A stretch of 64,000 bases of DNA. It comes from Bacillota bacterium. Its GTDB lineage: Bacteria; Bacillota; SHA-98; UBA4971. Both the position numbers and the translations under genes were made by a program. Below, one piece after another: positions 12,022 to 64,000 of this stretch (positions within the stretch are counted from its first letter, which is position 1; the number at the start of each line of letters is the position of its first letter). The notes below the pieces were generated by a model, which was not told where the DNA came from, made no database searches, and saw only the letters and a program-made list of their open reading frames with translations. Where the stretch lies: assembly GCA_012842395.1 (NCBI GenBank), contig DUSX01000018.1, positions 62,116-126,115 on the forward strand. The letters run 5' to 3'.

Positions 12022-14070
12022 TCATGGTTCGCGGCCGCCTTCACGCTGCGCGTCCCGCCTTGCCGCTGTGTGTTCGCTCCTGAGCTTGCGCCAAAGCGTG
12101 GTCCGGTTGATTCCGAGGCGACGGGCGGCTTCGCTCTTGTTGCCGCCGCATGCACTGACCGCACGGGCTATGCTCTCGCGTTCCACAGCTTTGATGAGGC
12201 TTTCGAGGTCGCGCCCGGTGCCGCTGTCGCGGGGACTGGCCAGAGTGCCAGCGGCTGAGGATGTGTCACCGTCGATCTCGGTAATGCGGGGCCATCCTTC
12301 CGACCCGGGCGTGTCACCTATGGCATCGAGCACGTCGTTGTTTGTGACACACCCGCTCTCCGACAAGACCAGGCACTTCTCGACGGTGTTTTTGAGCTCC
12401 CTCACGTTGCCATGCCAGGGATGAGCAAGAAGGACCGCCAACGCATCACTCGTGAAGCCCTGGAAGGGCGTACCGAGCTTTGCAGATAGTGTCCTCGCAA
12501 ACGTCTCAGCCAGAAGCGGTATGTCCTCAGGCCGCTCCCGCAGCGGGGGCAGCGCGAGCTTGAGGACGTCAAGCCGGTAGTACAGGTCTGCCTGAAACAG
12601 GCCCTCTGCAACGAGTTTACGGAGGTCTTTGTTAGACGCGGCGATGACACGGACGTCAATGGGGATTGTGCGGTCATCCCCCAGCCGCATCACCTCCTTT
12701 TCTTGGAGGACCCTGAGAAGGCGGGCCTGGAGACGCAGGGGCATGCCCGCGATCTCATCCAGGAAGATCGTTCCGTGGTGGGCCAGCTCAAAGAGGCCTT
12801 GTTTGCCTTCCCGCTTAGCCCCGGTGAAGGCACCTTCAACGTAACCGAACAGCTCGCTCTCGAGCAAGCTTTCCGGTAATGCGGCGCAGTTGACCGCGAC
12901 GAACGGCCCATCGCGCCTAGCACTCGCATTGTGAATGCTTTGGGCGAAAAGCTCTTTCCCGGTTCCTGTCTCTCCGAGGATGAGGATCGTGGAGTCCACG
13001 GCAGCAAAGCGTCTAGCCTTGGTGATGGCAGCCTGGATCGCGCGGCTGGTGCCTACGATGTCGCCGAACGTGAACCTCGCCACGTGGCCGCGGGCATAGA
13101 GCCTCTTGCGCAGGTCTTTTTCCAGCGCTTGCAACCTGCTGACATCCTGGAAGGTCGCGATGGCGCCCGCACATGAGCCGCTCACCACGATAGGCACACG
13201 GGTCACATTAACGAGAGTGCCGTTTATCCGACACACCTCGGGCGATGCGGGCTGGGAGGAAGGATTCGACGAGGACTCGCGGCGCCAATCCCGGCCCGAC
13301 GAGGCGGCTGCGAGGATCGCGGCGAAACCGGCTTCAGGCAACACCTCGTCTACGTGACGCCCTACGACGTCGGCTGCGGCGCGGCCTGTGAGCCGTTGGG
13401 CGGCTTCGTTGAAAACAGTGATGTGCCCTGCATCGTCTACAGCGATGATGCCGTCGGACACGTTGTCTATGATGAGTTTGAACTGCTCCGCCCGTGCCGT
13501 CTCGTGTTTCTTGACCCATAGCACGCGCGAAGCCTCGTCGATGGCTTGCCTGACAGCTTCCGGCCCAGATTCTATCAGCACGGCTCTGGCGCCGTGCTTC
13601 TCGGCGGTTCGAACAGTTATCACTCCGCCTATCAGGACATCAACTCCATCTCGCAGGGCTTCACGGACTGTCGTGTCGGCGTCGCGGGCGCGCTCGAGGA
13701 CGATCTCCTTTATCTCCACATCCATCGACTCGCTCAGCGTGCTCGCCCCGAGCACCATGTTCTCAAAGCCCACTATGGCAATGCGGCGCCCGAAGAGCCT
13801 TGCCTTCGCAACGGCGCGCACCACGTCGTAAGCTGTCACGCGGATCTCCACCACCGGCAGGCCGACGTCTTTGGCGTCCTGGAGCACGAGGGCCGTCCCC
13901 CCGCGACTGATGAGGACCTGAACCCCCTCCCTCTTCAGGCGCCGCGCGAGCGCCGGTGCCTCGCCCAGAAGGGCGCGCTCCACTCTGACTGGCTTTCGGA
14001 CGGTTCTCGAGACTTCGCAGGCCACCGCAGCGAGGTTGTCGTACGGTGCTATGAGCGCGATATCAGGCAT
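12022..14070 (-). CDS. Sigma-54-dependent transcriptional activator with PrpR-like N-terminal sensory domain, PAS domain, AAA+ sigma-54 interaction domain and Fis-type HTH
   Basis: [15 protein letters not shown] Walker A and ESELFGY (GAFTGA-region equivalent). C-terminal [21 protein letters not shown]-terminus resembles the propionate-regulator PrpR_N domain. Confidence 0.85.
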
Positions 14071-14496
14071 GCCTTGTCACCCCTCTGTTCGTCCTGGGAG
14101 GGGTTTCGCTTTGGGCAGGTGGCTTTCCTTCCGAAGTACGGTGCCACAGGTCTTCGCCTCCTACCTCGAGGGCGACAGGAGCGCCGGGGCTGCCCGTGAT
14201 TGCGCGGGACGCGGCGAGCTCGGCCGTCTCGCACGCCAAATCCTCGCCGAATCCGGACGAGGCGCGCCGCACAAACCGCAGGAAGTGCGCCGCCCCGGCC
14301 CCGGAGGGCAAGGCTGATGGCCTTAGGCGACACGTGCGTGCTGAAGGGCAGCGCGACGTTGTGACGATCACTTCGGTGCCGATCCCTGCCTCAACGGCGG
14401 CAGCATCATCGGGACGAAGCTGCGGCAGAGCCGTCGTCGCACGCGGACACCACCCCGGTCCTTGACGCTGCCAAAATATGGTGATATGATTGAGGC

Positions 14497-21934: not shown

Positions 21935-22468
21935 GTAGGCGGCCACGAGACCGTTGGTTTTTCCCAGCCAGAAGTCGGCCCTGCTTTAGGGCGTGCAAGT
22001 GCCACCTAAGGTAACCGGCCTTGTTCTTCAGGGACGGCGCGCCTGCGGGAAGCCTCGTGCGAATTCGGCGTGCGGGATGGCCCGATCCGCTGCGCGCCAT
22101 CGTGCAAGCACCGGCAACGCTGGCGGCTCTATGGAACCAGGCGAGGATTCGTGGCAGAGACTGTTGCGATTTCCGAGCAGTGCCAGCTTCCGCGAGCAGG
22201 GCGGCAGCTTGGCGCACTTTAACTCGGCTGCACTGGCGTAATATGGGAAGACTGAACGGCCCGATGGCACGTTACTTGGCTGCGGCCCTCGTCTGGCCAG
22301 TGGTAGGGCCTGGTGGACGGGGGTCCGTGCCCCATTCGGCGGTGGTCCGCCCGGCGGAGAGGGGAGGAGGAGCGCGGGGTCTTCCTGATTCGCCCGCTCT
22401 TGAGGGATGCAGGCCGAAACCAGGACAGGCCCCTGTGCGCACTTTGGACACGTGGGGGGGAAGGAAGA

Positions 22469-24724: not shown

Positions 24725-24800
24725 GGGCGGATAGCTCAGTTGGGAGAGCACCTCCCTTACAAGGAGGGGGTCGGCAGTTCAAATCTGCCTTCGCCCACCA
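24725..24800 (+). tRNA. tRNA-Val (anticodon TAC)
   Basis: 76-nt cloverleaf. Acceptor stem GGGCGGA/TTCGCCC. Anticodon loop CTTACAA. GTTCAAATC T-loop. Encoded CCA. Confidence 0.9.
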
Positions 24801-24835
24801 AGAGCAAGAAACGACAATTAAAGATAGATGTTTGC

Positions 24836-24913
24836 GGAGGCGTGGTGTAGCTGGTCTAACATACCTGCCTGTCACGCAGGAGATCGCGGGTTCGAATCCC
24901 GTCGCTTCCGCCA
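24836..24913 (+). tRNA. tRNA-Asp (anticodon GTC)
   Basis: 78 nt. Acceptor GGAGGCG/CGCTTCC. Anticodon loop CTGTCAC. GTTCGAATC T-loop. Encoded CCA. Confidence 0.9.
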
Positions 24914-24921
24914 TTTTGTTA

Positions 24922-24997
<76 letters not shown>

Positions 24998-27005: not shown

Positions 27006-28451
27006 GTGAGTCTCAAGGCTGTTGCCAACGTGGTAGGATCCTTGGTCATTCTGCTGGGCTTCCTTGCAATAGTCCCAGCGGGGGTCTCCGTATATTGTCG
27101 CGAGGGGGACGCCCCAGCTTTCCTGCTGTCGATGGTTATAGCTGTCTCGTCCGGAGCCATCGTTAAGAGACTTTCTCGCGGTGACCAGGGAGTGCGCAAT
27201 AGAGAGTGCTTTGCCATAGTCACCCTCGGGTGGGTGGCGGCAGCGACCGTGGGGGCACTTCCGTTCGTCCTATACGGGACGTTGCCGTCGTTCACTGATG
27301 CGTTCTTTGAGGCGATCTCCGGATTCACCACGACGGGCGCAACGATGATCGCGGATATCGAGGCACAACCCCACGGGATACTGTTGTGGCGAAGCCTTCT
27401 TCATTGGTTGGGCGGCATGGGAATTATCGTCCTCTTCATTGCCGTTCTGCCCAACTTCGGGCTGGAGGACGCAAGGCTCTTCAAAGTAGAGGTTCCCGGC
27501 CCGGTCCCTGAGAGACTTGAGCCGAGGATAAGGGAAACCGCGAGAGCGCTTTGGGGTATATACGCGGGCATGTCCCTGGCAGAGATCATTCTCCTATGCC
27601 TAGGTGGCATGAGTCTCTTTGATTCGGTGACTCACACGTTCGCCACGGTGTCGACCGGGGGTTTCTCGACAAAGACAGCGAGCATAGGCGCGTGGCAAAG
27701 TCCATTTATCCAGTCCACGATAATCTTTTTCATGCTTGCCGCTGGGGGGAACTTCGCCCTCTACTTCCGCGCGCTTCATGGCCGCCACAGGGCTATTCTC
27801 CCTGACGCTGAACTACGGTTTTATCTCCTGGTGGTGATCGTGGCAACTTGCACGGTAGCCTTGAGCCTCTACTTCAGCGGATCGTCAGGGCTTGTTGGCG
27901 CGGTGCGAGATGCGGCTTTCCAAGTATCATCGGTGATAACGACTACTGGGTTTGCCACTGCCGATTTTGATGCCTGGCCGTCTCTCGCCAAAGGGATCCT
28001 TTTGGGCTTGATGTTCATCGGAGGGTGCACCGGCTCCACGAGCGGTGCGATCAAGGTGGCCCGGGTGCTCATGGTTTTCAAACACGGGTGCAGGGAGCTT
28101 CAGAGGCTGATTCACCCGAAGGCGGTTTCAGTCGCGAAGCTGAATGGTGAAGCTATCAGACCCGATGTCTTGAACAGGGTTCTCGGATTCGTGTTCCTGT
28201 ATGTATTCGTTTTCATTTCGGCCTCCCTTGTGATGATGGCGCTGGGCCTAGACATGGTGAGCGCGTGCTCGTCGGTGGCGGCCACCCTCGGGAATGTGGG
28301 CCCGGGGCTGGGGATCGTCGGGCCGACGTATACCTATGTACCTCTGCCTGCCTTAGGCAAATGGGTGCTAAGCCTTTGCATGCTGCTTGGAAGGCTTGAG
28401 CTCTATCCGGTCCTGGTGTTGCTGGTGCCGAGCTTCTGGCTGAGATACTAA
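27006..28451 (+). CDS. trkH: Trk-type potassium uptake membrane protein TrkH/KtrB
   Basis: 481-aa polytopic protein with repeated pore-loop segments (TTTGF, STGGFST, TTTGFAT). Immediately follows trkA. Confidence 0.85.
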   Translation: MSLKAVANVVGSLVILLGFLAIVPAGVSVYCREGDAPAFLLSMVIAVSSGAIVKRLSRGDQGVRNRECFAIVTLGWVAAATVGALPFVLYGTLPSFTDAFFEAISGFTTTGATMIADIEAQPHGILLWRSLLHWLGGMGIIVLFIAVLPNFGLEDARLFKVEVPGPVPERLEPRIRETARALWGIYAGMSLAEIILLCLGGMSLFDSVTHTFATVSTGGFSTKTASIGAWQSPFIQSTIIFFMLAAGGNFALYFRALHGRHRAILPDAELRFYLLVVIVATCTVALSLYFSGSSGLVGAVRDAAFQVSSVITTTGFATADFDAWPSLAKGILLGLMFIGGCTGSTSGAIKVARVLMVFKHGCRELQRLIHPKAVSVAKLNGEAIRPDVLNRVLGFVFLYVFVFISASLVMMALGLDMVSACSSVAATLGNVGPGLGIVGPTYTYVPLPALGKWVLSLCMLLGRLELYPVLVLLVPSFWLRY

Positions 28452-28803
28452 GTATATCGCCAGGAGACCGTTGAACTCTCCCACGTTGCGCCACCTTGGA
28501 ACGATTGAAGCCCACGAAGTCGTCGCCGTTATCGCCCGGATTTGCAGCTGCCGGGGAGGTTCACTGGTCTCAGTCAGGGGTTCGCACTGCTTTTCAGCTT
28601 TCCGGTTTTTCGGCTTTTCGGCGCGTGCCGTCCTGTCAGAGGCCACCGAGCTTGCCTCCCCGGGCAGGGAGGCGACACGCCTTCCGCGCGCCTCGTTCGA
28701 GCCCGGAGCGCGATATGGCTAGACCTTCCACACCAAGTCGTGCCAGACCGGCGGCCCTGGCGCTGTCAAGAAGAGAAGCGAAGGCTCACGGCGTCATACT
28801 CAG
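28448..28803. repeat. Degenerate copy of the MITE-like element, overlapping the trkH stop
   Basis: Begins CTAAGTATATCGCC, a 1-mismatch variant of the TIR. Internal GCGCGCCTCGTTCGAG matches the element core. A degenerate right end (GGCGTCATACTCAG) is at about 28790-28803. Confidence 0.4.
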
Positions 28804-29707: not shown

Positions 29708-29815
29708 CTAAGTATGTCGCCAAAAGTTCACGCCACTTTTCGGCGGAGGGGTCGTGCCTAAGGCTATCGGTGTTGCCATCCGGGGACGGCGCGCTTGCGG
29801 CGCGCCTCACGGCGC
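29708..29815. repeat. Truncated MITE-like element (left TIR plus about 90 bp of core)
   Basis: CTAAGTATGTCGCCAAAAGTTCACGCCACTTTTCGGCGG...CCTAAGGCTATCGGTGTTGCC is about 90% identical to the first 110 bp of the copy at 58797. No right TIR. Confidence 0.6.
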
Positions 29816-29969: not shown

Positions 29970-30044
29970 GCGGAAGTGGCTCAGGGGTAGAGCATCGCCT
30001 TGCCAAGGCGAGGGTCGCGGGTTCAAATCCCGTCTTCCGCTCCA
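29970..30044 (+). tRNA. tRNA-Gly (anticodon GCC)
   Basis: 75 nt. Acceptor GCGGAAG/CTTCCGC. Anticodon loop CTTGCCAAG. Encoded CCA. Confidence 0.9.
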
Positions 30045-30068
30045 TAATTTATATATCTGGGGCTGTGG

Positions 30069-30142
30069 GGCGACATAGCCAAGTGGCAAGGCAGCGGTCT
30101 GCAAAACCGCTATCCCCGGTTCGAATCCGGGTGTCGCCTCCA
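30069..30142 (+). tRNA. tRNA-Cys (anticodon GCA)
   Basis: 74 nt. Acceptor GGCGACA/TGTCGCC. Anticodon loop TCTGCAAAA. Encoded CCA. Confidence 0.9.
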
Positions 30143-31263: not shown

Positions 31264-31340
31264 GCGGCGTTAGCTCAGTTGGCTAGAGCGCAGCGTTGAC
31301 ATCGCTGAGGTCGCTGGTTCAATTCCAGCACGTCGCACCA
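31264..31340 (+). tRNA. tRNA-Val (anticodon GAC)
   Basis: 77 nt. Acceptor GCGGCGT/ACGTCGC. Anticodon loop GTTGACATC. Encoded CCA. TTGACA-N17-TAGAAT promoter at 31183-31211. Confidence 0.9.
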
Positions 31341-47984: not shown

Positions 47985-48083
47985 GCCTCGCCCCTCCCGC
48001 TACGGAAGACGGGCGCGTTCCCCGCGTCGGCCTCCAAGTGGAGGTGCGAAGAAAGTGGCGCGAACCTTTGGGCACATACTTAG
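47985..48083. repeat. Fragment carrying the right terminal inverted repeat of the MITE-like element
   Basis: Ends GCGCGAACCTTTGGGCACATACTTAG, compared with the element right end GCGCGAACTCTTGGCGACATACTTAG. The left boundary is unclear. Confidence 0.4.
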
Positions 48084-49464: not shown

Positions 49465-49909
49465 TGAGGAACCAGCCCTTTCCCGACGCGTTTTCCACTG
49501 ACAACCAATTAATCGAGAGCAAGTGAACGGCTACGAGTTTACGCGAGTTTTCAGTGTGGAAGCGTTTTTGCACCTCTACTTAGCGCGGCCGCCGGCCGGA
49601 CGCTTTCGCACCTGGGCGACGGGCGACCGAACGGGCGCCCTCTGGCTAGAGAAGTAGTATGGTTCCCGCAAGCCCTTGTTATTCCGTGCCAAGCACACCC
49701 GGCACCCTCCCGGCGTTGCCTTTGACCTTTGATTTTGATGGGCGCCCAAAGGATGGGCGCCCAAAGCCCAAAGCTCGTACCGCTCGTTGGCGTCCGCCCG
49801 CGCCTCCGTTCAAGGCCCGCTCGCGGTGGCACCCGCGCCGGCGCCGGCGCGGCGAGCATTCCGCGATTCTTTCCGGCAGGGAATACATCGCGGGCGACGC
49901 GACAAGACT

Positions 49910-50989: not shown

Positions 50990-51144
50990 AGAGGGACCGA
51001 TCGTGACCCGCGGGTGTAACCAGCACGGGAGCAACGAGGGCGGCTTCGCTTGAGCATGTGGTATAATGATGCCTGGCGGGCCGGAAGGCGGGGCTGCGCA
51101 GCGTCCGCAGCTGGAGTCGCTGGAGCCCGCCGGAGGGATGCTGG

Positions 51145-53556
51145 TTGGACGAAAGGACCCTGCGGGTTTTGGAGTTCCACAAGATTAGAGAGCGCCTCGC
51201 CGCAGCTACCACGAACAGCCTTGGCCGGGAGCTCGCGCTCGCCCTTGAGCCGGTCACCGAGGCGGAAGGCGTCTTTTCGAGGCAACGCGAAACCACCGAG
51301 GCGAGGAAGATCCTGGAGAGATATCCCGCCGTGCCCCTCGGGGGGATCCGCGACGTCAGGTCCGCGGTGGCGAGGGCAAGGGTGGGGTCCACTCTGTCGC
51401 CTCAGGAGCTTCTGGAAGTCGCGTGGACCATGGACGCGGCCAGCCGGCTCCGAAAGTTCATCCTGGATCTCGACGAGGAATTCGCGACGATGCGCGGCCA
51501 CGCGGCCAAGATTAGTCCTCAGCCGTCTCTTGTGCGGGAGGTGACCCGGTGTCTCGACGACCAGGGCGGCGTGGTGGACCATGCAAGCCCCCTTTTGGCG
51601 AGGCTCAGGGCTGAGATCAGGATGACGGAGGGTCGCATCCGGGATCAGCTGGATTCGCTTGTGCGCTCACCGGAGGCCTCGCGCTGGCTGCAAGACCCGG
51701 TGGTGACGATCCGGGGCGGCAGGTTTGTCGTGCCGGTGAAGCAGGAGCATCGGGCGGCGGTCCCGGGCATAGTCCATGACCAGTCCGCAAGCGGCATGAC
51801 GCTTTTCGTTGAGCCCATGGCGGTGGTTGAACTCAATAACGAGCTTGCAGCGCTCGAGGCGAAGGAGCGCGACGAGGTAGAGAGGATCCTTCGTCACCTG
51901 TCCGGGCTCGTTCGCGTGGCGTGTCCCGAGATTCAGCAGACCCTGGAAACCCTCGGCGCCCTGGACTTCGCTTTCGCCAAGGGCAGGCTCAGCATGGACA
52001 TGAACGCCGTGGAGCCTGAGATCAACACCTCTGACTATCTTCAGATTCGCCAGGGGAGACACCCGCTCCTTCAGGGGCGGGTCGTCCCGATAGATGTAGA
52101 GCTTGGCGCGAGGTTCCGGACGCTCGTCGTAACCGGCCCAAACACGGGCGGCAAGACCGTATCGCTGAAGACGATAGGGCTCTTCGCCCTGATGACCATG
52201 GCTGGCCTTCACCTTCCCGCGGGGAGCGGCACGAGGTTCGGCGTGTTCCAGCGCGTGTTCGCCGATATCGGCGACGAACAGAGCATCGAGCAGAGCCTCT
52301 CGACTTTCTCATCGCATATGAGTCACATAGTGAAGATACTGGAGCAGGCAGGCCCGGGGTCGCTCGTGCTTCTGGACGAGCTGGGCGCGGGCACGGACCC
52401 CGTTGAAGGGGCCTCGCTGGGCGTCGCCATTCTGGAGCACCTACACTCGCGCGGTGCGTGTACAGTGGCCACCACGCATTACAGCGAGCTCAAGACGTTT
52501 GCGTACGAGCACGATGGTGTGGAGAACGCCTCGTGCGAGTTCGATGTCGCGACGCTGCAACCTACCTACCGTCTCATAGTTGGTGTTCCCGGGAGCTCGT
52601 GCGCTTTCGAGGTTGCGGAGCGGCTTGGCCTTCCGCACGAGATCGTGGAGTCCGCACGGGCGAGGCTGGGAGAGGACCGGATGAGGGTCGAGCACATCAT
52701 CGCCGAGATCGAGCGGAACCGCAAAGAGATTGAAGAGGACAGGGAGCGCGCACGCGGCGCGAGACAGATGATGGAACGGCTCGTCCGCGAGCGGGACGAG
52801 GAGGCTCGGCGGCTACGCGAGGAACGGTCCGAGATGCTCCGGAAGGCTCGCGAGGAGGCGGCACGCATCTTGTCTTCCGCGCGGGAGAACGTTGCGAGGA
52901 TCATCGAGGATCTCAAACGGAACGCCGCGCAGCTCGATAGGAGCGCGGTGGACGACGTCGCGCGCAGGGCGAGGGAAGCCTTGAAGCAGGCCACGGAGGA
53001 GATCATGAAGGCCGGGGATGCCGAGACAGAGCAGCAGAAAGAGGTATCGGCGCGGGCGTGCCGCACCAGGGCTCCGCGGCCGGGCGAGATCGTCGTCGGC
53101 TCGCGGGTGTACGTGCCTCGGCTCGGGAGCTCCGGCCGGGTTGTGGGCGTGCCGCGCGTCGGGGAAAACGTGGAAGTCCAGGTCGGAGCGATGAGGCTCT
53201 TCGTGCCCGCCAAGGACCTTGCCATGATCGACGACGAGCCGGAGAGCCCTGGCCCGGCTGTGGGCGGCGTGACCATGGCGCCCGTCGCCCGCGAGAAGGC
53301 CGCCGTCGTCTCGAGCGAGCTCGATCTCCGTGGGCTGACCGTCGAGGATGCGCTCGCCGAGGTGGATAAGTACCTGGACGACGCGTGCCTTGCGGGACTC
53401 CCGAAGGCCAGGATAATACACGGCAAGGGGACGGGAGCGCTGCGGCAGGCCGTCCGCGAGTTCGTGAGGACCCATCCTCACGTGAAAGGCTTCGAGCCCG
53501 GGGGACCTGGGGAAGGCGGGGACGGCGTCACGGTTGTCGCCATCCGGGGGGACTAA
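51145..53556 (+). CDS. mutS2: Endonuclease MutS2 (MutS domain plus C-terminal Smr)
   Basis: Walker A GPNTGGKTV. Coiled-coil middle region. Smr domain LDLRGLTVEDALAEVDKYLD...HGKGTGALRQAVREF. Confidence 0.9.
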   Translation: MDERTLRVLEFHKIRERLAAATTNSLGRELALALEPVTEAEGVFSRQRETTEARKILERYPAVPLGGIRDVRSAVARARVGSTLSPQELLEVAWTMDAASRLRKFILDLDEEFATMRGHAAKISPQPSLVREVTRCLDDQGGVVDHASPLLARLRAEIRMTEGRIRDQLDSLVRSPEASRWLQDPVVTIRGGRFVVPVKQEHRAAVPGIVHDQSASGMTLFVEPMAVVELNNELAALEAKERDEVERILRHLSGLVRVACPEIQQTLETLGALDFAFAKGRLSMDMNAVEPEINTSDYLQIRQGRHPLLQGRVVPIDVELGARFRTLVVTGPNTGGKTVSLKTIGLFALMTMAGLHLPAGSGTRFGVFQRVFADIGDEQSIEQSLSTFSSHMSHIVKILEQAGPGSLVLLDELGAGTDPVEGASLGVAILEHLHSRGACTVATTHYSELKTFAYEHDGVENASCEFDVATLQPTYRLIVGVPGSSCAFEVAERLGLPHEIVESARARLGEDRMRVEHIIAEIERNRKEIEEDRERARGARQMMERLVRERDEEARRLREERSEMLRKAREEAARILSSARENVARIIEDLKRNAAQLDRSAVDDVARRAREALKQATEEIMKAGDAETEQQKEVSARACRTRAPRPGEIVVGSRVYVPRLGSSGRVVGVPRVGENVEVQVGAMRLFVPAKDLAMIDDEPESPGPAVGGVTMAPVAREKAAVVSSELDLRGLTVEDALAEVDKYLDDACLAGLPKARIIHGKGTGALRQAVREFVRTHPHVKGFEPGGPGEGGDGVTVVAIRGD

Positions 53557-53763
53557 GTATGTCGCCATAAGTTTTCGTCCCCTTGCCTGACGGCGTTAGG
53601 GTTGCCGGTGCTTGCACGACGGGGCGTGGAGAATTCGGATGTCTCCCGCGCCGAATTCGAACGAGGCACGCCGCAAGCGCGCCGTCCCCGGAGGGCAACA
53701 CCGATAACCTTAGGCAGGACCCCCCCTCCGAAAAGTAGCGCGAACTCTTGGCGACATACTTAG
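53547..53763. mobile_element. Complete MITE-like non-autonomous element (217 bp) with about 21-bp terminal inverted repeats
   Basis: Left end CTAAGTATGTCGCCATAAGTT, right end AACTCTTGGCGACATACTTAG. The core is the reverse complement of the 58797 copy. No ORF. Flanked by CTA and TAG. Confidence 0.75.
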
Positions 53764-53791
53764 AAGCTCCCGCCTGACTGCAGTGCAGGTC

Positions 53792-56044
53792 CTACTCGGC
53801 GGGAGGGCTTGCGCTCTGAGAGGCGGATGGCAAGGTGTCTGGCTGCGCGGCGCGGTCGGTGGCGGTTCCGTCGTTCCGACCGTGAAGAGGGCAGTACGTC
53901 GTTGGGATGTGCTCGTCTGCCGCTATCGTGCCGTCCGGAAGCACCCGCAGACCGCTGGAGGACAGGTAGCGCCGAATCTCGACTTTATCCGGCGGACAGG
54001 CGCCCGTCGCGAGGCACCCCGACTCAGTGCACACTGCGACTTCAACGATGCCGCTGTGGAGAGAGCAGTAGTCTTTTGGCTCTGTCCCGGGCAAGAATAC
54101 CTCTGTGGTGGTCTTTGGGCACGAAGGGGTCGCGAGCATACCTGATTCAGTGCAGATCGTGGTGAACACGAGCCCGGCCGGCACCGGGAATTCCGCAGGT
54201 GGGGTATCGCGCAACGCCTCCTTCATGAAAGCCCCCCATATCATCGCCGCCCGTGCGCTGCCGATCCTTACCCCTCCGTAAACCATCGGCTTCTGCTGCT
54301 CGTCATTGCCTATCCATACACATGCCACGAGGTCAGGCGTGAACCCTACGAACCACGCGTTGGTGTAATCTGACGTAGTCCCTGTCTTGCCTGCTGCCGG
54401 ACGACCGATGTTTGCCGCCTTGCCGGTTCCGCGGGTGATGACGCCCCGCATCATGTCAGTCATGATATATGCTGTTTGCTCGTCAAGGACCACGTTCTTG
54501 ACTGGCACGTTGCGCTCGAGCACATTCCCGTCGGGGTCCTCCACCCTCAATATGGCGATGGGCTCTGCCCTGATTCCCTGGTTGGCGAACACAGCGTATG
54601 CGGCCGCCATCTCGAGAGGCGTGACACCCTTCGTCAGCCCGCCCAGCACGAGCGAAAGGTTCATGTCGTTCCGTCGCCCAGATTCCACGAGGCTCGTTAT
54701 CCCCATGGCCTCGGCGGTCTTGACCGCCTTTTCGATGCCTATCTGGTCGAGAAGCTTCACGGACGGCACGTTGATGGAGTCTTCCAAAGCCTTTCGCAGG
54801 GTAACGGGCCCCCGGAACTTGTTGTCGTTGTTGATGGGCGCCCAGGGTTCCTTTTGCCCCGGGATGTTGTACTCGACCGGCGAGTCATCCAGCATTGTGG
54901 ACGGGGTATACCCCGCCTGTATGGCCGCGGTGTACACGAACGGTTTGAACGCTGACCCTGGCTGCCTATACGACTGAACAGCCCTGTTGAACTCGTCGTT
55001 GCCGCGTCCGCCGACCATCGCCCTGATGTAGCCATCGTGAGCATCGAGCACGACCATGGCTCCCTGGGGTTGTATGAGGCCCTTCGAGTCGGGTTTGCCC
55101 TGCGGAAGATTGGAGACGAGCGTTTTCTCGGCGAGCTCTTGGAGTCTCAGGTCTAGTGTTGTGTACACCTTCAAGCCGCCTTTGTACACCAGATCCCGTC
55201 CGTATCTCTCCAACAGCTGCGTTCGGACGTAGTCGACGAAATACGGGGCGACCTCTTTTGACGAGCGCTTTTCAATAACCCCCAAGGGGGCCCGATTGGC
55301 CGCATCCGCCTGCTCCTGTGAGATGTACCCGAGTTCCACCATGCGCGATAGAACCGTCGCACGTCTCGCCCGCGCGGCCTCGGGATTCTTGGTGGGCGAA
55401 TAGAGCTGGGAGTTCCGTATCAAGCCCGCGAGGAGCGCGGACTCGGCGAGGTTCAGGTCACGCACGTGCTTGCCGAAATACCCTTGGGACGCGGCCTCCA
55501 CCCCGTACACGGCCTGGCCGGGGAAAAAGTAAACCTCATTAAGGTACAGCTCTAGGATCTGATCTTTGGTGTACGCGCGCTCGAGTTGGATCGCGTAGAT
55601 GAACTCCTGGATCTTTCTGGTGAACGTACGCTCCTGCGTCAAGAACGCGTTCTTGGCAAGCTGCTGAGTAATGGTGCTCCCGCCCTGGACGATCCGGCCC
55701 TCCCTGAGGTCGACGAGGAGGGCTCTCAGCATAGCGGTGAAGTTGACGCCGTGATGCTGGCGGAAATTGTGGTCTTCTATGGCGATCACGGCGTTCTGCA
55801 GTGTCTCCGGGATGTCACGTAACGGGACCCACACTCTGTTTTCTATGTACAACCTCGAAATGAGTTTTCCGTTGACATCGTATATCCTCGTGGCCTCGCT
55901 GGGCCTGTACTCGAGGTCTTGGAGCGCGGGCATGTTCCGCAAAGCCCCCATGACCACTCCCACGAGGACGCCGGAGACGACACATGCCGCCAGGACAAAG
56001 GTTATGACTAGGACGGATATGATGCGCCCCATGCCCCTGGACAT
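53792..56044 (-). CDS. Class A penicillin-binding protein (PBP1A; transglycosylase plus transpeptidase) with Cys-rich C-terminal tandem repeats
   Basis: N-terminal TM. GT51 motifs (EDHNFRQHHGVN, RKIQEF) and transpeptidase SxxK/SxN/KTG. C-terminus contains two approximately 40-aa repeats with C-TESG-LAT--CP. Confidence 0.85.
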   Translation of the reverse strand: MSRGMGRIISVLVITFVLAACVVSGVLVGVVMGALRNMPALQDLEYRPSEATRIYDVNGKLISRLYIENRVWVPLRDIPETLQNAVIAIEDHNFRQHHGVNFTAMLRALLVDLREGRIVQGGSTITQQLAKNAFLTQERTFTRKIQEFIYAIQLERAYTKDQILELYLNEVYFFPGQAVYGVEAASQGYFGKHVRDLNLAESALLAGLIRNSQLYSPTKNPEAARARRATVLSRMVELGYISQEQADAANRAPLGVIEKRSSKEVAPYFVDYVRTQLLERYGRDLVYKGGLKVYTTLDLRLQELAEKTLVSNLPQGKPDSKGLIQPQGAMVVLDAHDGYIRAMVGGRGNDEFNRAVQSYRQPGSAFKPFVYTAAIQAGYTPSTMLDDSPVEYNIPGQKEPWAPINNDNKFRGPVTLRKALEDSINVPSVKLLDQIGIEKAVKTAEAMGITSLVESGRRNDMNLSLVLGGLTKGVTPLEMAAAYAVFANQGIRAEPIAILRVEDPDGNVLERNVPVKNVVLDEQTAYIMTDMMRGVITRGTGKAANIGRPAAGKTGTTSDYTNAWFVGFTPDLVACVWIGNDEQQKPMVYGGVRIGSARAAMIWGAFMKEALRDTPPAEFPVPAGLVFTTICTESGMLATPSCPKTTTEVFLPGTEPKDYCSLHSGIVEVAVCTESGCLATGACPPDKVEIRRYLSSSGLRVLPDGTIAADEHIPTTYCPLHGRNDGTATDRAAQPDTLPSASQSASPPAE

Positions 56045-58796: not shown

Positions 58797-59007
58797 CTAA
58801 GTATGTCGCCAAAAGTTCGCGCTACCTTTCGGCGGGGCCGCCCTGCCTAAGGCTATCGGTGTTGCCCTCCGGGGACGGCGCGCTTGCGGCGCGCCTCGTT
58901 CGAATTCGGCGCGCAAGACATCCGAATTCTCCACGCCCCGTCGGGCAAGCACCGGCAACCCCAGCGCCGTCAGGAAAGGAGACGAACACTTATGCCGCCA
59001 TACTTAG
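58797..59007. mobile_element. Complete MITE-like non-autonomous element (211 bp)
   Basis: Left end CTAAGTATGTCGCCAAAAGTT, right end CTTATGCCGCCATACTTAG. The first 110 bp are about 90% identical to the 29708 copy. No ORF. Flanked by CTA and TAG. Confidence 0.75.
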
Positions 59008-63946: not shown

Positions 63947-64000
63947 CTAAGTATGTCGCCAAAAGTCCGCGCTACTTGTCGGCGGGGCGGCCCAGGGTTG
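63947..64000. repeat. Left end of another MITE-like element, running off the window
   Basis: CTAAGTATGTCGCCAAAAGTCCGCGCTACTTGTCGGCGGGGCGGCC matches the element left arm. Confidence 0.55.

Follow-up and report, generated by a model that had tools for sequence, protein, structure and literature searches.

The stretch analysed here (hereafter the window) comprises 64,000 nucleotides of an uncultured Bacillota genome (contig DUSX01000018.1, positions 62,116 to 126,115), with a GC content of 61.9% and the gene content of a sporulating member of the phylum, including YunB, BofC, SpoIIM, MutS2, a class-A penicillin-binding protein (PBP) and GroES/EL. Dispersed among these genes is a repeat of about 211 bp bounded by 21-bp terminal inverted repeats (TIRs), one complete copy of which lies between the convergent MutS2 and PBP genes and another downstream of YunB. 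The observations described below make it very probable that the repeats are copies of a non-coding, non-autonomous miniature inverted-repeat transposable element (MITE), with an element proper of about 205 bp and the TIRs of one subgroup of the IS630/Tc1-mariner family. The family is new, but elements of this kind are well known. The window comes from a 244-kb contig of a biogas-fermenter metagenome (ENA ERZ925058, PRJDB5067), and an assembly built independently from a second sample carries the stretch at 99.996-100% identity. The repeat sequence is also present in JGI and ENA bioreactor contigs, besides the two ENA biogas-fermenter samples. Because independent assemblies carry the same sequence, the repeat is not an assembly artefact. 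The best MutS2 relatives from named species are only ~50% identical to that of the window (Symbiobacterium; a Limnochordia metagenome-assembled genome, or MAG, is similar), and all closer MutS2 relatives come from MAGs.

The 21-mer CTAAGTATGTCGCCAAAAGTT, which forms one end of the element, has six matches in the window at up to three mismatches, compared with 0.00 expected from 100 shuffled sequences. Searching the window with nhmmer, using an element profile built from 12 full copies, retrieved seven loci, and BLAST added the remnant of one element end. The repeat family that a preliminary description of this DNA had proposed from the letters alone is thus real, with eight copies or remnants where none is expected by chance, at a density of about one per 8-9 kb. 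That description had counted at least six copies; the count stands, and nhmmer adds two diverged copies that had been missed (21957-22162 and 14132-14375).

Three copies are full length (~211 bp), the third of them lying only partly inside the window. The copy at 53553-53763 (minus strand; 211 bp counted from CTAAG to CTTAG; nhmmer 237.6 bits, profile positions 1-211) is placed between the convergent MutS2 and class-A PBP genes. The copy at 58797-59007 (plus strand; 233.4 bits; TA dinucleotides at 58798-58799 and 59005-59006) begins 5 nt past the YunB stop codon. These two are indeed reverse complements of each other, as had been described, and share 91.5% identity, but the first starts at 53553 rather than 53547 and is 211 bp long rather than 217 bp. 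The third copy, on the plus strand, is represented by its first 54 bp at 63947-64000. It had been noted correctly as running off the window but listed among the truncated or degenerate copies, whereas in the source contig it continues at full length to window-equivalent 64152 (216.2 bits over profile positions 1-211; L037 9536-9741), flanked by the 5' end of YebC/TACO1 and the 3' end of PrsW. Beyond it, 9.5 kb more of the source contig contained no other copy.

The other copies are incomplete or old. A 5' half copy (29708-29808, plus strand, profile positions 1-101, 94.6 bits) is truncated upstream of the tRNA-Gly/Cys promoter region; it had been recognized as truncated, with an extent of 29708-29815. 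The stretch 28448-28803 (plus strand), previously taken as one degenerate copy, is a composite: only 28614-28802 belongs to the family (profile positions 29-210), and 28448-28613 forms a distinct 5' module whose TIR-like end, CTAAGTATATCGCCAGGAGAC, is related to the family's TIR. Two old diverged copies lie at 21957-22162 (21967-22154 in the nhmmer listing; plus strand; ~76% identity; 81.9 bits), without recognizable TIRs and 33 nt after the OGG glycosylase gene, and at 14132-14375 (14134-14367 in the nhmmer listing; minus strand; 68.1 bits), with internal insertions and placed in a divergent intergenic region. The BLAST remnant of one element end lies at ~48040-48083 on the minus strand.

All full copies share the same anatomy. 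Each runs from CTAAG to CTTAG and the flanks are unrelated directly outside, while pairwise identity between full copies ranges from 76 to 96%. The TIRs are imperfect, with 17-19 of the 21 terminal positions complementary in each full copy, and the two ends differ consistently from each other (CTAAGTATGTCGCCAAAAGTT versus CTAAGTATGGCGCCATAAGTT). Element size varies from 205 to 211 bp, the indels between copies are not multiples of three, no open reading frame (ORF) is conserved, and tblastn revealed no transposase similarity within the element. The imperfect TIRs, the absence of coding capacity and the GC-rich core with an internal palindrome that had been described at the outset are therefore all borne out, the palindrome GCGCGCCTCGTTCGAATTCGGCGCGC being found at 58889-58914 and, with two mismatches, at 53646-53671. 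The interior as a whole is a long imperfect palindrome, predicted on either strand to form a rod that branches at its centre. Other contigs hold more than 12 distinct copies; those in the bioreactor contigs JGI Ga0134099-Ga0134104 and ENA UPAD01/UPSA01 are 82-90% identical to the window copies and have different flanks.

We next compared the window with the syntenic loci of five related genomes, whose MutS2 proteins are 76-90% identical to that of the window (L025 90%, L027 81%, L033 78%, L035/L036 76%). At the MutS2-PBP junction, the window reads ...gggggaC TA [AGTATGTCGCC...GGCGACATACT] TA Gaagctcccgc, while the same junction in L035/L036 is empty and reads ...ggatggaC TA Gagcccgc, with an intact CTAG. 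A second comparison involves a sister family of MITEs with the TIR CTAAGTGAGGGTGCA. Here the window holds the empty site (49646-49649, ctctggC TA Gagaagtagtatgg) and L025 the filled one, ctctggC TA [AGTGAGGG...CCCCACT] TA Gagatgtagtatgg, where a 198-bp MITE is bordered by TA duplications. The latter is a perfectly clean filled-versus-empty pair in which the insertion chemistry can be read directly. From these pairs it follows that the outermost C and G belong to the target, that TA is duplicated and that the element proper measures about 205 bp. In the copy between MutS2 and PBP, the target C is then 53553, the duplicated TA occupies 53554-53555 and 53761-53762, the element proper spans 53556-53760, and the target G is 53763. 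IS630-family elements are known to duplicate TA (PMC2170065), and IS630 itself, according to the studies of Tenzen & Ohtsubo (1990/1991) as cited there, prefers a TA within CTAG.

The occupied sites differ between the related genomes. At the point of the MutS2-PBP insertion, L033 carries a shorter copy of the window family and L027 a different MITE, that with the TIR CTAAGTGAGGGTGCA. The copy downstream of YunB is absent at the corresponding point in L025, L027, L033 and L035. The site between DUF421 and polyprenyl synthase is occupied in L025 only, that between polyprenyl synthase and MutS2 in L027 only, and the DUF2600-ExoX site, empty in L027, holds a remnant in both the window and L025. 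The copies are thus non-syntenic. The preliminary description had called for such a presence/absence comparison and had named a fixed regulatory or terminator motif, kept in syntenic positions across species, as the outcome that would speak against a mobile element; the relatives display the opposite pattern.

The identity of the TIRs links the repeats to a defined group of insertion sequences. A 40-nt query containing the TIR matched Microvirga plasmids where annotated transposase genes end. The insertion sequence on plasmids of Microvirga sp. VF16 (L030 2502-3654) is 1,153 bp long and has the ends CTAAGTAGGTCGCCAAAAGTT and CTAAGTAGGTCGCCATAAGAC; an A6G slippery site connects the helix-turn-helix ORF and the DDE_3 ORF that it encodes. 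Its end CTAAGTAGGTCGCCAAAAGTT is identical to the MITE TIR CTAAGTATGTCGCCAAAAGTT at 20 of 21 positions. Two more full-length insertion sequences, from metagenomes (L031 and L032), end in CTAAGTAGGTTGCC... and CTAAGTAGGTAGCCAAAAGTC, are of the form CTAAGTAGGT[T/A]GCC..., and match the MITE TIR at 18/21 and 16-17/21 positions. The CTAAG...CTTAG context is common to the MITE and to these Microvirga and metagenomic elements. All three transposases pass the NCBIfam IS630 model NF033545 with scores of 175.5, 150.2 and 132 bits (cut-off 100). Together with the small size, the lack of coding capacity, the dispersed TIR-bounded copies, the TA duplication in CTAG and the presence/absence differences, these IS630-type TIRs strongly support the earlier proposal of a MITE-like, non-autonomous element family. 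Full-length insertion sequences, which that proposal had suggested looking for, are present with TIRs close to those of the MITE in Microvirga plasmids and in metagenomes, but no IS630 transposase was found in the ~400 kb from the lineage of the window and its related loci.

The TIR of this IS630 subgroup contains the stop codon of the transposase and its last 6-7 codons (...NFW(R/L)PT*) (L030 2502-2530 and 3625-3654; L031; L032). Since the TIR encodes the transposase C-terminus, its sequence is under two constraints, that of a binding site and that of a coding region, which plausibly explains its conservation across phyla. When translated, the MITE TIR would give ...NFWRHT*. Among the homologues of the Microvirga transposase listed (120 of 123 hits), many end in ...FWxPT and none in ...HT, and none of the 123 hits could be tied to the lineage of the window. 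The same TIR is also found on two short elements of 176 bp (L003 7052-7226, Thermoflexales MAG JBBQST010000139.1) and 151 bp (L004 1286-1436, a metagenome contig), where one end is identical to the MITE TIR at 21/21 positions and the other at 20/21. Their interiors are unrelated to the window family, and they share the subterminal AAGTTCTGC with the Microvirga insertion sequence. It seems that separate MITEs have arisen in another phylum from this one IS630 subgroup. Since this TIR occurs both on Chloroflexota MITE interiors and on Alphaproteobacteria insertion sequences, it marks one IS630 subgroup with cross-phylum reach.

We then analysed the position of the copies relative to stop codons. 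The MutS2 gene (51145-53556, plus strand, Pfam MutS_V/Smr) ends in a TAA at 53554-53556 that consists of the duplicated TA and the first base of the element, and the uninserted MutS2 orthologue in L035 ends in GAC TAG. The TrkH stop codon (28449-28451) likewise lies within the terminus of the composite copy at 28448-28803, and the ExoX-like gene has its stop (48080-48082, minus strand) within the terminal CTTAG of the remnant at ~48040-48083. These three genes end inside element termini because insertion into C|TAG rebuilds the stop as TAA. In about 10 of the ~22 copies examined, a long ORF (at least 100 codons) ends in a terminal TAA or TGA. All copies had been said to sit immediately after stop codons; this is true of those at 53553, 58797, 28448, 48083 and 21967 and of the far end of the 63947 copy, but not of those at 29708 and 14132, which lie in divergent 5' intergenic regions. 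CTAG is about three-fold depleted in the window, with 70 occurrences observed versus 221 expected from base composition (88 by a Markov estimate). The association with stop codons is a consequence of the CTAG/TAG target and not a separate property of the element; the pattern would arise from target specificity combined with purifying selection against intragenic insertions.

Altogether, the elements have every sequence-testable feature of an IS630-type MITE, apart from a cognate transposase in the same genome, none being found in the ~400 kb searched. Several observations weigh against this assignment. In the closest relative, L025, the empty MutS2-PBP site reads ACTGAAG, that is CTG, one base off CTAG. 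No IS630 transposase was detected by tblastn with eight transposases of the subgroup in ~400 kb comprising the window, further DNA of its contig (~74 kb of the source contig, the window plus 10 kb) and the related loci. The exact TIR pattern, searched for in genome and metagenome collections, gave only MITE-sized elements or chance matches. The full-length insertion sequences with similar ends were found in other phyla or in metagenomes of unassigned host, and the MITE interior has no similarity to their interiors, the likeness ending by ~25 bp. The presumed mobility of the element is, moreover, deduced from comparative data only.

The two exact-TIR scans differed in scope. That of 185,579 species genomes, the source genome not being among them, retrieved three loci: a partial copy in the related MAG AS02xzSISU_21, the Chloroflexota MITE and a chance match in Terracidiphilus. 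The metagenome scan retrieved 19 loci, in which all paired ends are at most 709 bp apart, with no full-length insertion sequence among them. Single-end matches (L001/L021, L007 and L008) fall within coding sequence that is ordinary or of low complexity and were dismissed as chance, and a 709-bp element (L012 5684-6392) was rejected as a parent since it has internal repeats only and no transposase ORF.

The suggestion that the element is actively proliferating is not supported. Even full copies match one another at only 76-96%, one half of all copies in the window have been truncated or have decayed and have lost their fold, and the transposase search of the ~400 kb was negative. Copy divergence and the decayed copies also argue against a very recent burst.

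The mechanism that we propose is built on these comparisons and on what is known of the IS630 family. An IS630-family DDE transposase, supplied in trans, would bind the TIRs, excise the element and insert it at the TA of 5'-CTAG-3', duplicating the TA. With few CTAG sites available in a genome of 62% GC, and with selection acting against intragenic insertions, those insertions that survive would accumulate between genes and at C|TAG stops, where an insertion would change TAG to TAA and leave the protein unchanged. Inserted copies would then behave as neutral, decaying DNA, and ageing copies do lose their ends and their fold.

The GC-rich core is predicted to fold into a Y-shape that combines two hairpins with a GGGG/CCCC stem and an outer stem (GGGTTGCCGGTG/CACCGGCAACCC). 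The same predicted Y-shape is seen in well-preserved cores of both the window family and the sister family, with hairpin sequences that differ compensatorily and z-scores of -4.6 to -8.0. The three full copies of the window have fold z-scores between -2.5 and -4.8, compared with -6 to -8 for well-preserved cores from bioreactor contigs and MAGs and -8.8 for one full element. Conservation is highest in the 3' core motif GTGCAAKCACCGGCAACCC, which is found only inside elements. These properties, and the many copies at gene 3' ends, would suit host-selected structured modules (3'-end hairpins, terminators, stabilizers after stop codons or a host-factor site) for which the TIRs are only a delivery vehicle. 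We consider this improbable, since the RNAalifold covariation term for the alignment of the window family is negligible (-0.36), an Rfam scan gave only tRNAs at the gathering threshold (best sub-threshold matches E ≥ 0.57), and the copies lie in both orientations relative to the upstream gene. Of the aligned cores, four (two from the window) have an outer stem disrupted without compensation (AGGCTATCGG versus CACCGGCAACCC); the half copy at 29708 has the same 5'-arm variant, so that three or more sites in the window were reached by a whole subfamily in spite of its broken stem. In addition, the cores of the old copies have decayed to z-scores near zero (+0.65 for the core at 22009 in copy 21957-22162, -0.35 for that at 14187 in copy 14132-14375), a scan of the elements found neither a promoter or terminator consensus nor a terminator-like T-tract, and the sites are not kept between related genomes. 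A related idea, somewhat less doubtful but still unlikely, is that the Y-shaped core is a selected cargo module which IS630-type CTAG targeting would deliver onto or just after stop codons. The core is common to at least two MITE families of different TIR, and partly to a third composite form; as cargo it could serve as a portable 3'-end hairpin (terminator or mRNA stabilizer) or as a host-factor or transposase enhancer site.

Two further explanations have very little probability in our judgement, and equally little. A family of small non-coding RNA genes, with stable structured transcripts duplicated around the genome, might account for the strongly negative z-scores of well-preserved copies, both the full element and the cores. 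Both strands of the elements, however, fold about equally well, which is expected of a DNA palindrome. Such genes would also have to lack any promoter or terminator consensus and any Rfam family, overlap stop codons, occur in both orientations and tolerate decayed copies. As intergenic, palindromic, GC-rich and dense repeats, the elements also resemble REPs and BIMEs, and could be thought to spread, REP/REPIN-like, by a RAYT-type (IS200/IS605-like) enzyme or by recombination rather than by a DDE transposase. The unit, however, is ~211 bp long with 21-bp TIRs and not a palindrome of 20-40 bp, its TIR is near-identical to IS630-family ends, TA within CTAG is duplicated at filled compared with empty sites, and no Y1/RAYT gene was noted in the annotated regions. 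For the IS630-type MITE that we favour, the simplest reading of the core and its fate is selfish DNA that decays after insertion.

Several known systems offer comparisons. RUP of Streptococcus pneumoniae, like the window family, is a non-coding, intergenic Bacillota MITE of ~100-200 bp with IS630-like TIRs that inserts at TA; it has been attributed to IS630-Spn1, its mobilization by that transposase being inferred rather than demonstrated (PMC2229807). RUP differs in its length of 107 bp, its short TIRs and the presence of a candidate parent insertion sequence in the same genome. The window family is ~211 bp long, with a GC-rich branched core, a strict CTAG context and an uncultured, high-GC, sporulating host; no parent insertion sequence was found in the ~400 kb searched from its lineage, and a sequence relationship to RUP is not expected. 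With IS630 of Shigella sonnei and the wider IS630/Tc1/mariner family, including ISY100, it shares the TA duplication, the CTAG preference and the TIR type ...GTCGCCAAAAGT, but its elements encode no transposase and are passengers, not autonomous members. The Microvirga sp. VF16 insertion sequence, in turn, has an alphaproteobacterial host and is ~1.15 kb long with a transposase. Correia/NEMIS elements of Neisseria, ERIC and RPE are likewise 100-200 bp long and mostly intergenic, with TIRs, a terminal TA, long stem-loops and subfamilies with exchangeable modules (PMC2229807), but are unrelated to the window family in sequence and host. No paper containing the TIR strings was found in the literature searched.

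For annotation, the assignment gives a testable identity to a dense repeat in an uncultured, MAG-only Bacillota lineage of biogas reactors. Repeats of this type interrupt assemblies and give rise to spurious ORFs, and their copies can be used as strain or species markers. It is important to note that a target chemistry directed at TA in CTAG, together with selection, yields stop-rebuilding insertions, a pattern that could be mistaken for a regulatory signal. The known workings of MITEs are unchanged by these findings; the stop-preserving insertion is a neat example that will not surprise a specialist.

The sister family and some composite forms were seen alongside the window family. Sister-family elements share the TIR CTAAGTGAGGGTGCA..., have cores ~70-73% identical to that of the window family with the same predicted fold, and are common in related MAGs; copies lie at 12388-12625 and 9534-9845 of L027 and at 2618-2815 of L025. 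In the window this family is represented only by a remnant end at 49554-49583 and by the unoccupied CTAG at 49646-49649. The 709-bp non-coding element (L012 5684-6392, L009 6002-6710) has a related TIR, CTAAGTATGTCGCCACGAGAC, and internal short repeats, and its 5' module is ~72% similar to window 28448-28613 (a further locus of this group is L002 1777-1879). The way in which these ends and modules are combined suggests modular, chimeric MITEs.

The window, L025 and L027 carry the three-gene block of the ExoX-like gene, DUF421 and polyprenyl synthase in inverted orientation compared with L033, L035 and L036 (window 47985-48079 and 50990-51144 compared with L033 5878-10001 and L035 6216-10001). 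One inversion breakpoint in the window holds the remnant at ~48040-48083, and the other breakpoint, in L027, holds a sister-family MITE. To the right of the 53553-53763 copy, ~24 bp between 53767 and 53812 are missing from L025. The extra stretch, CTCCCGCC..., pairs with GGCGGGAG just within the 3' end of the PBP coding region, making a local hairpin between the convergent MutS2 and PBP genes possible at 53767-53812.

Among the related sequences, the MutS2 proteins P0002 (GCA_050260395.1) and P0005 (GCA_050260545.1) are 90% and 78% identical to that of the window, and their contigs are syntenic with the window region. These MAGs are labelled Betaproteobacteria and Bacteroidota, respectively, and the two records are probably mis-binned or mislabelled. 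Finally, the window contains tRNA clusters for Val-Asp-Phe (24725-24997) and Gly-Cys (29970-30142) and a single tRNA-Val (31264-31340), and tRNA-Gly is preceded by a promoter-like TTGCAA-17-TAAACT, ~50 bp upstream of which the half element at 29708-29808 stops.

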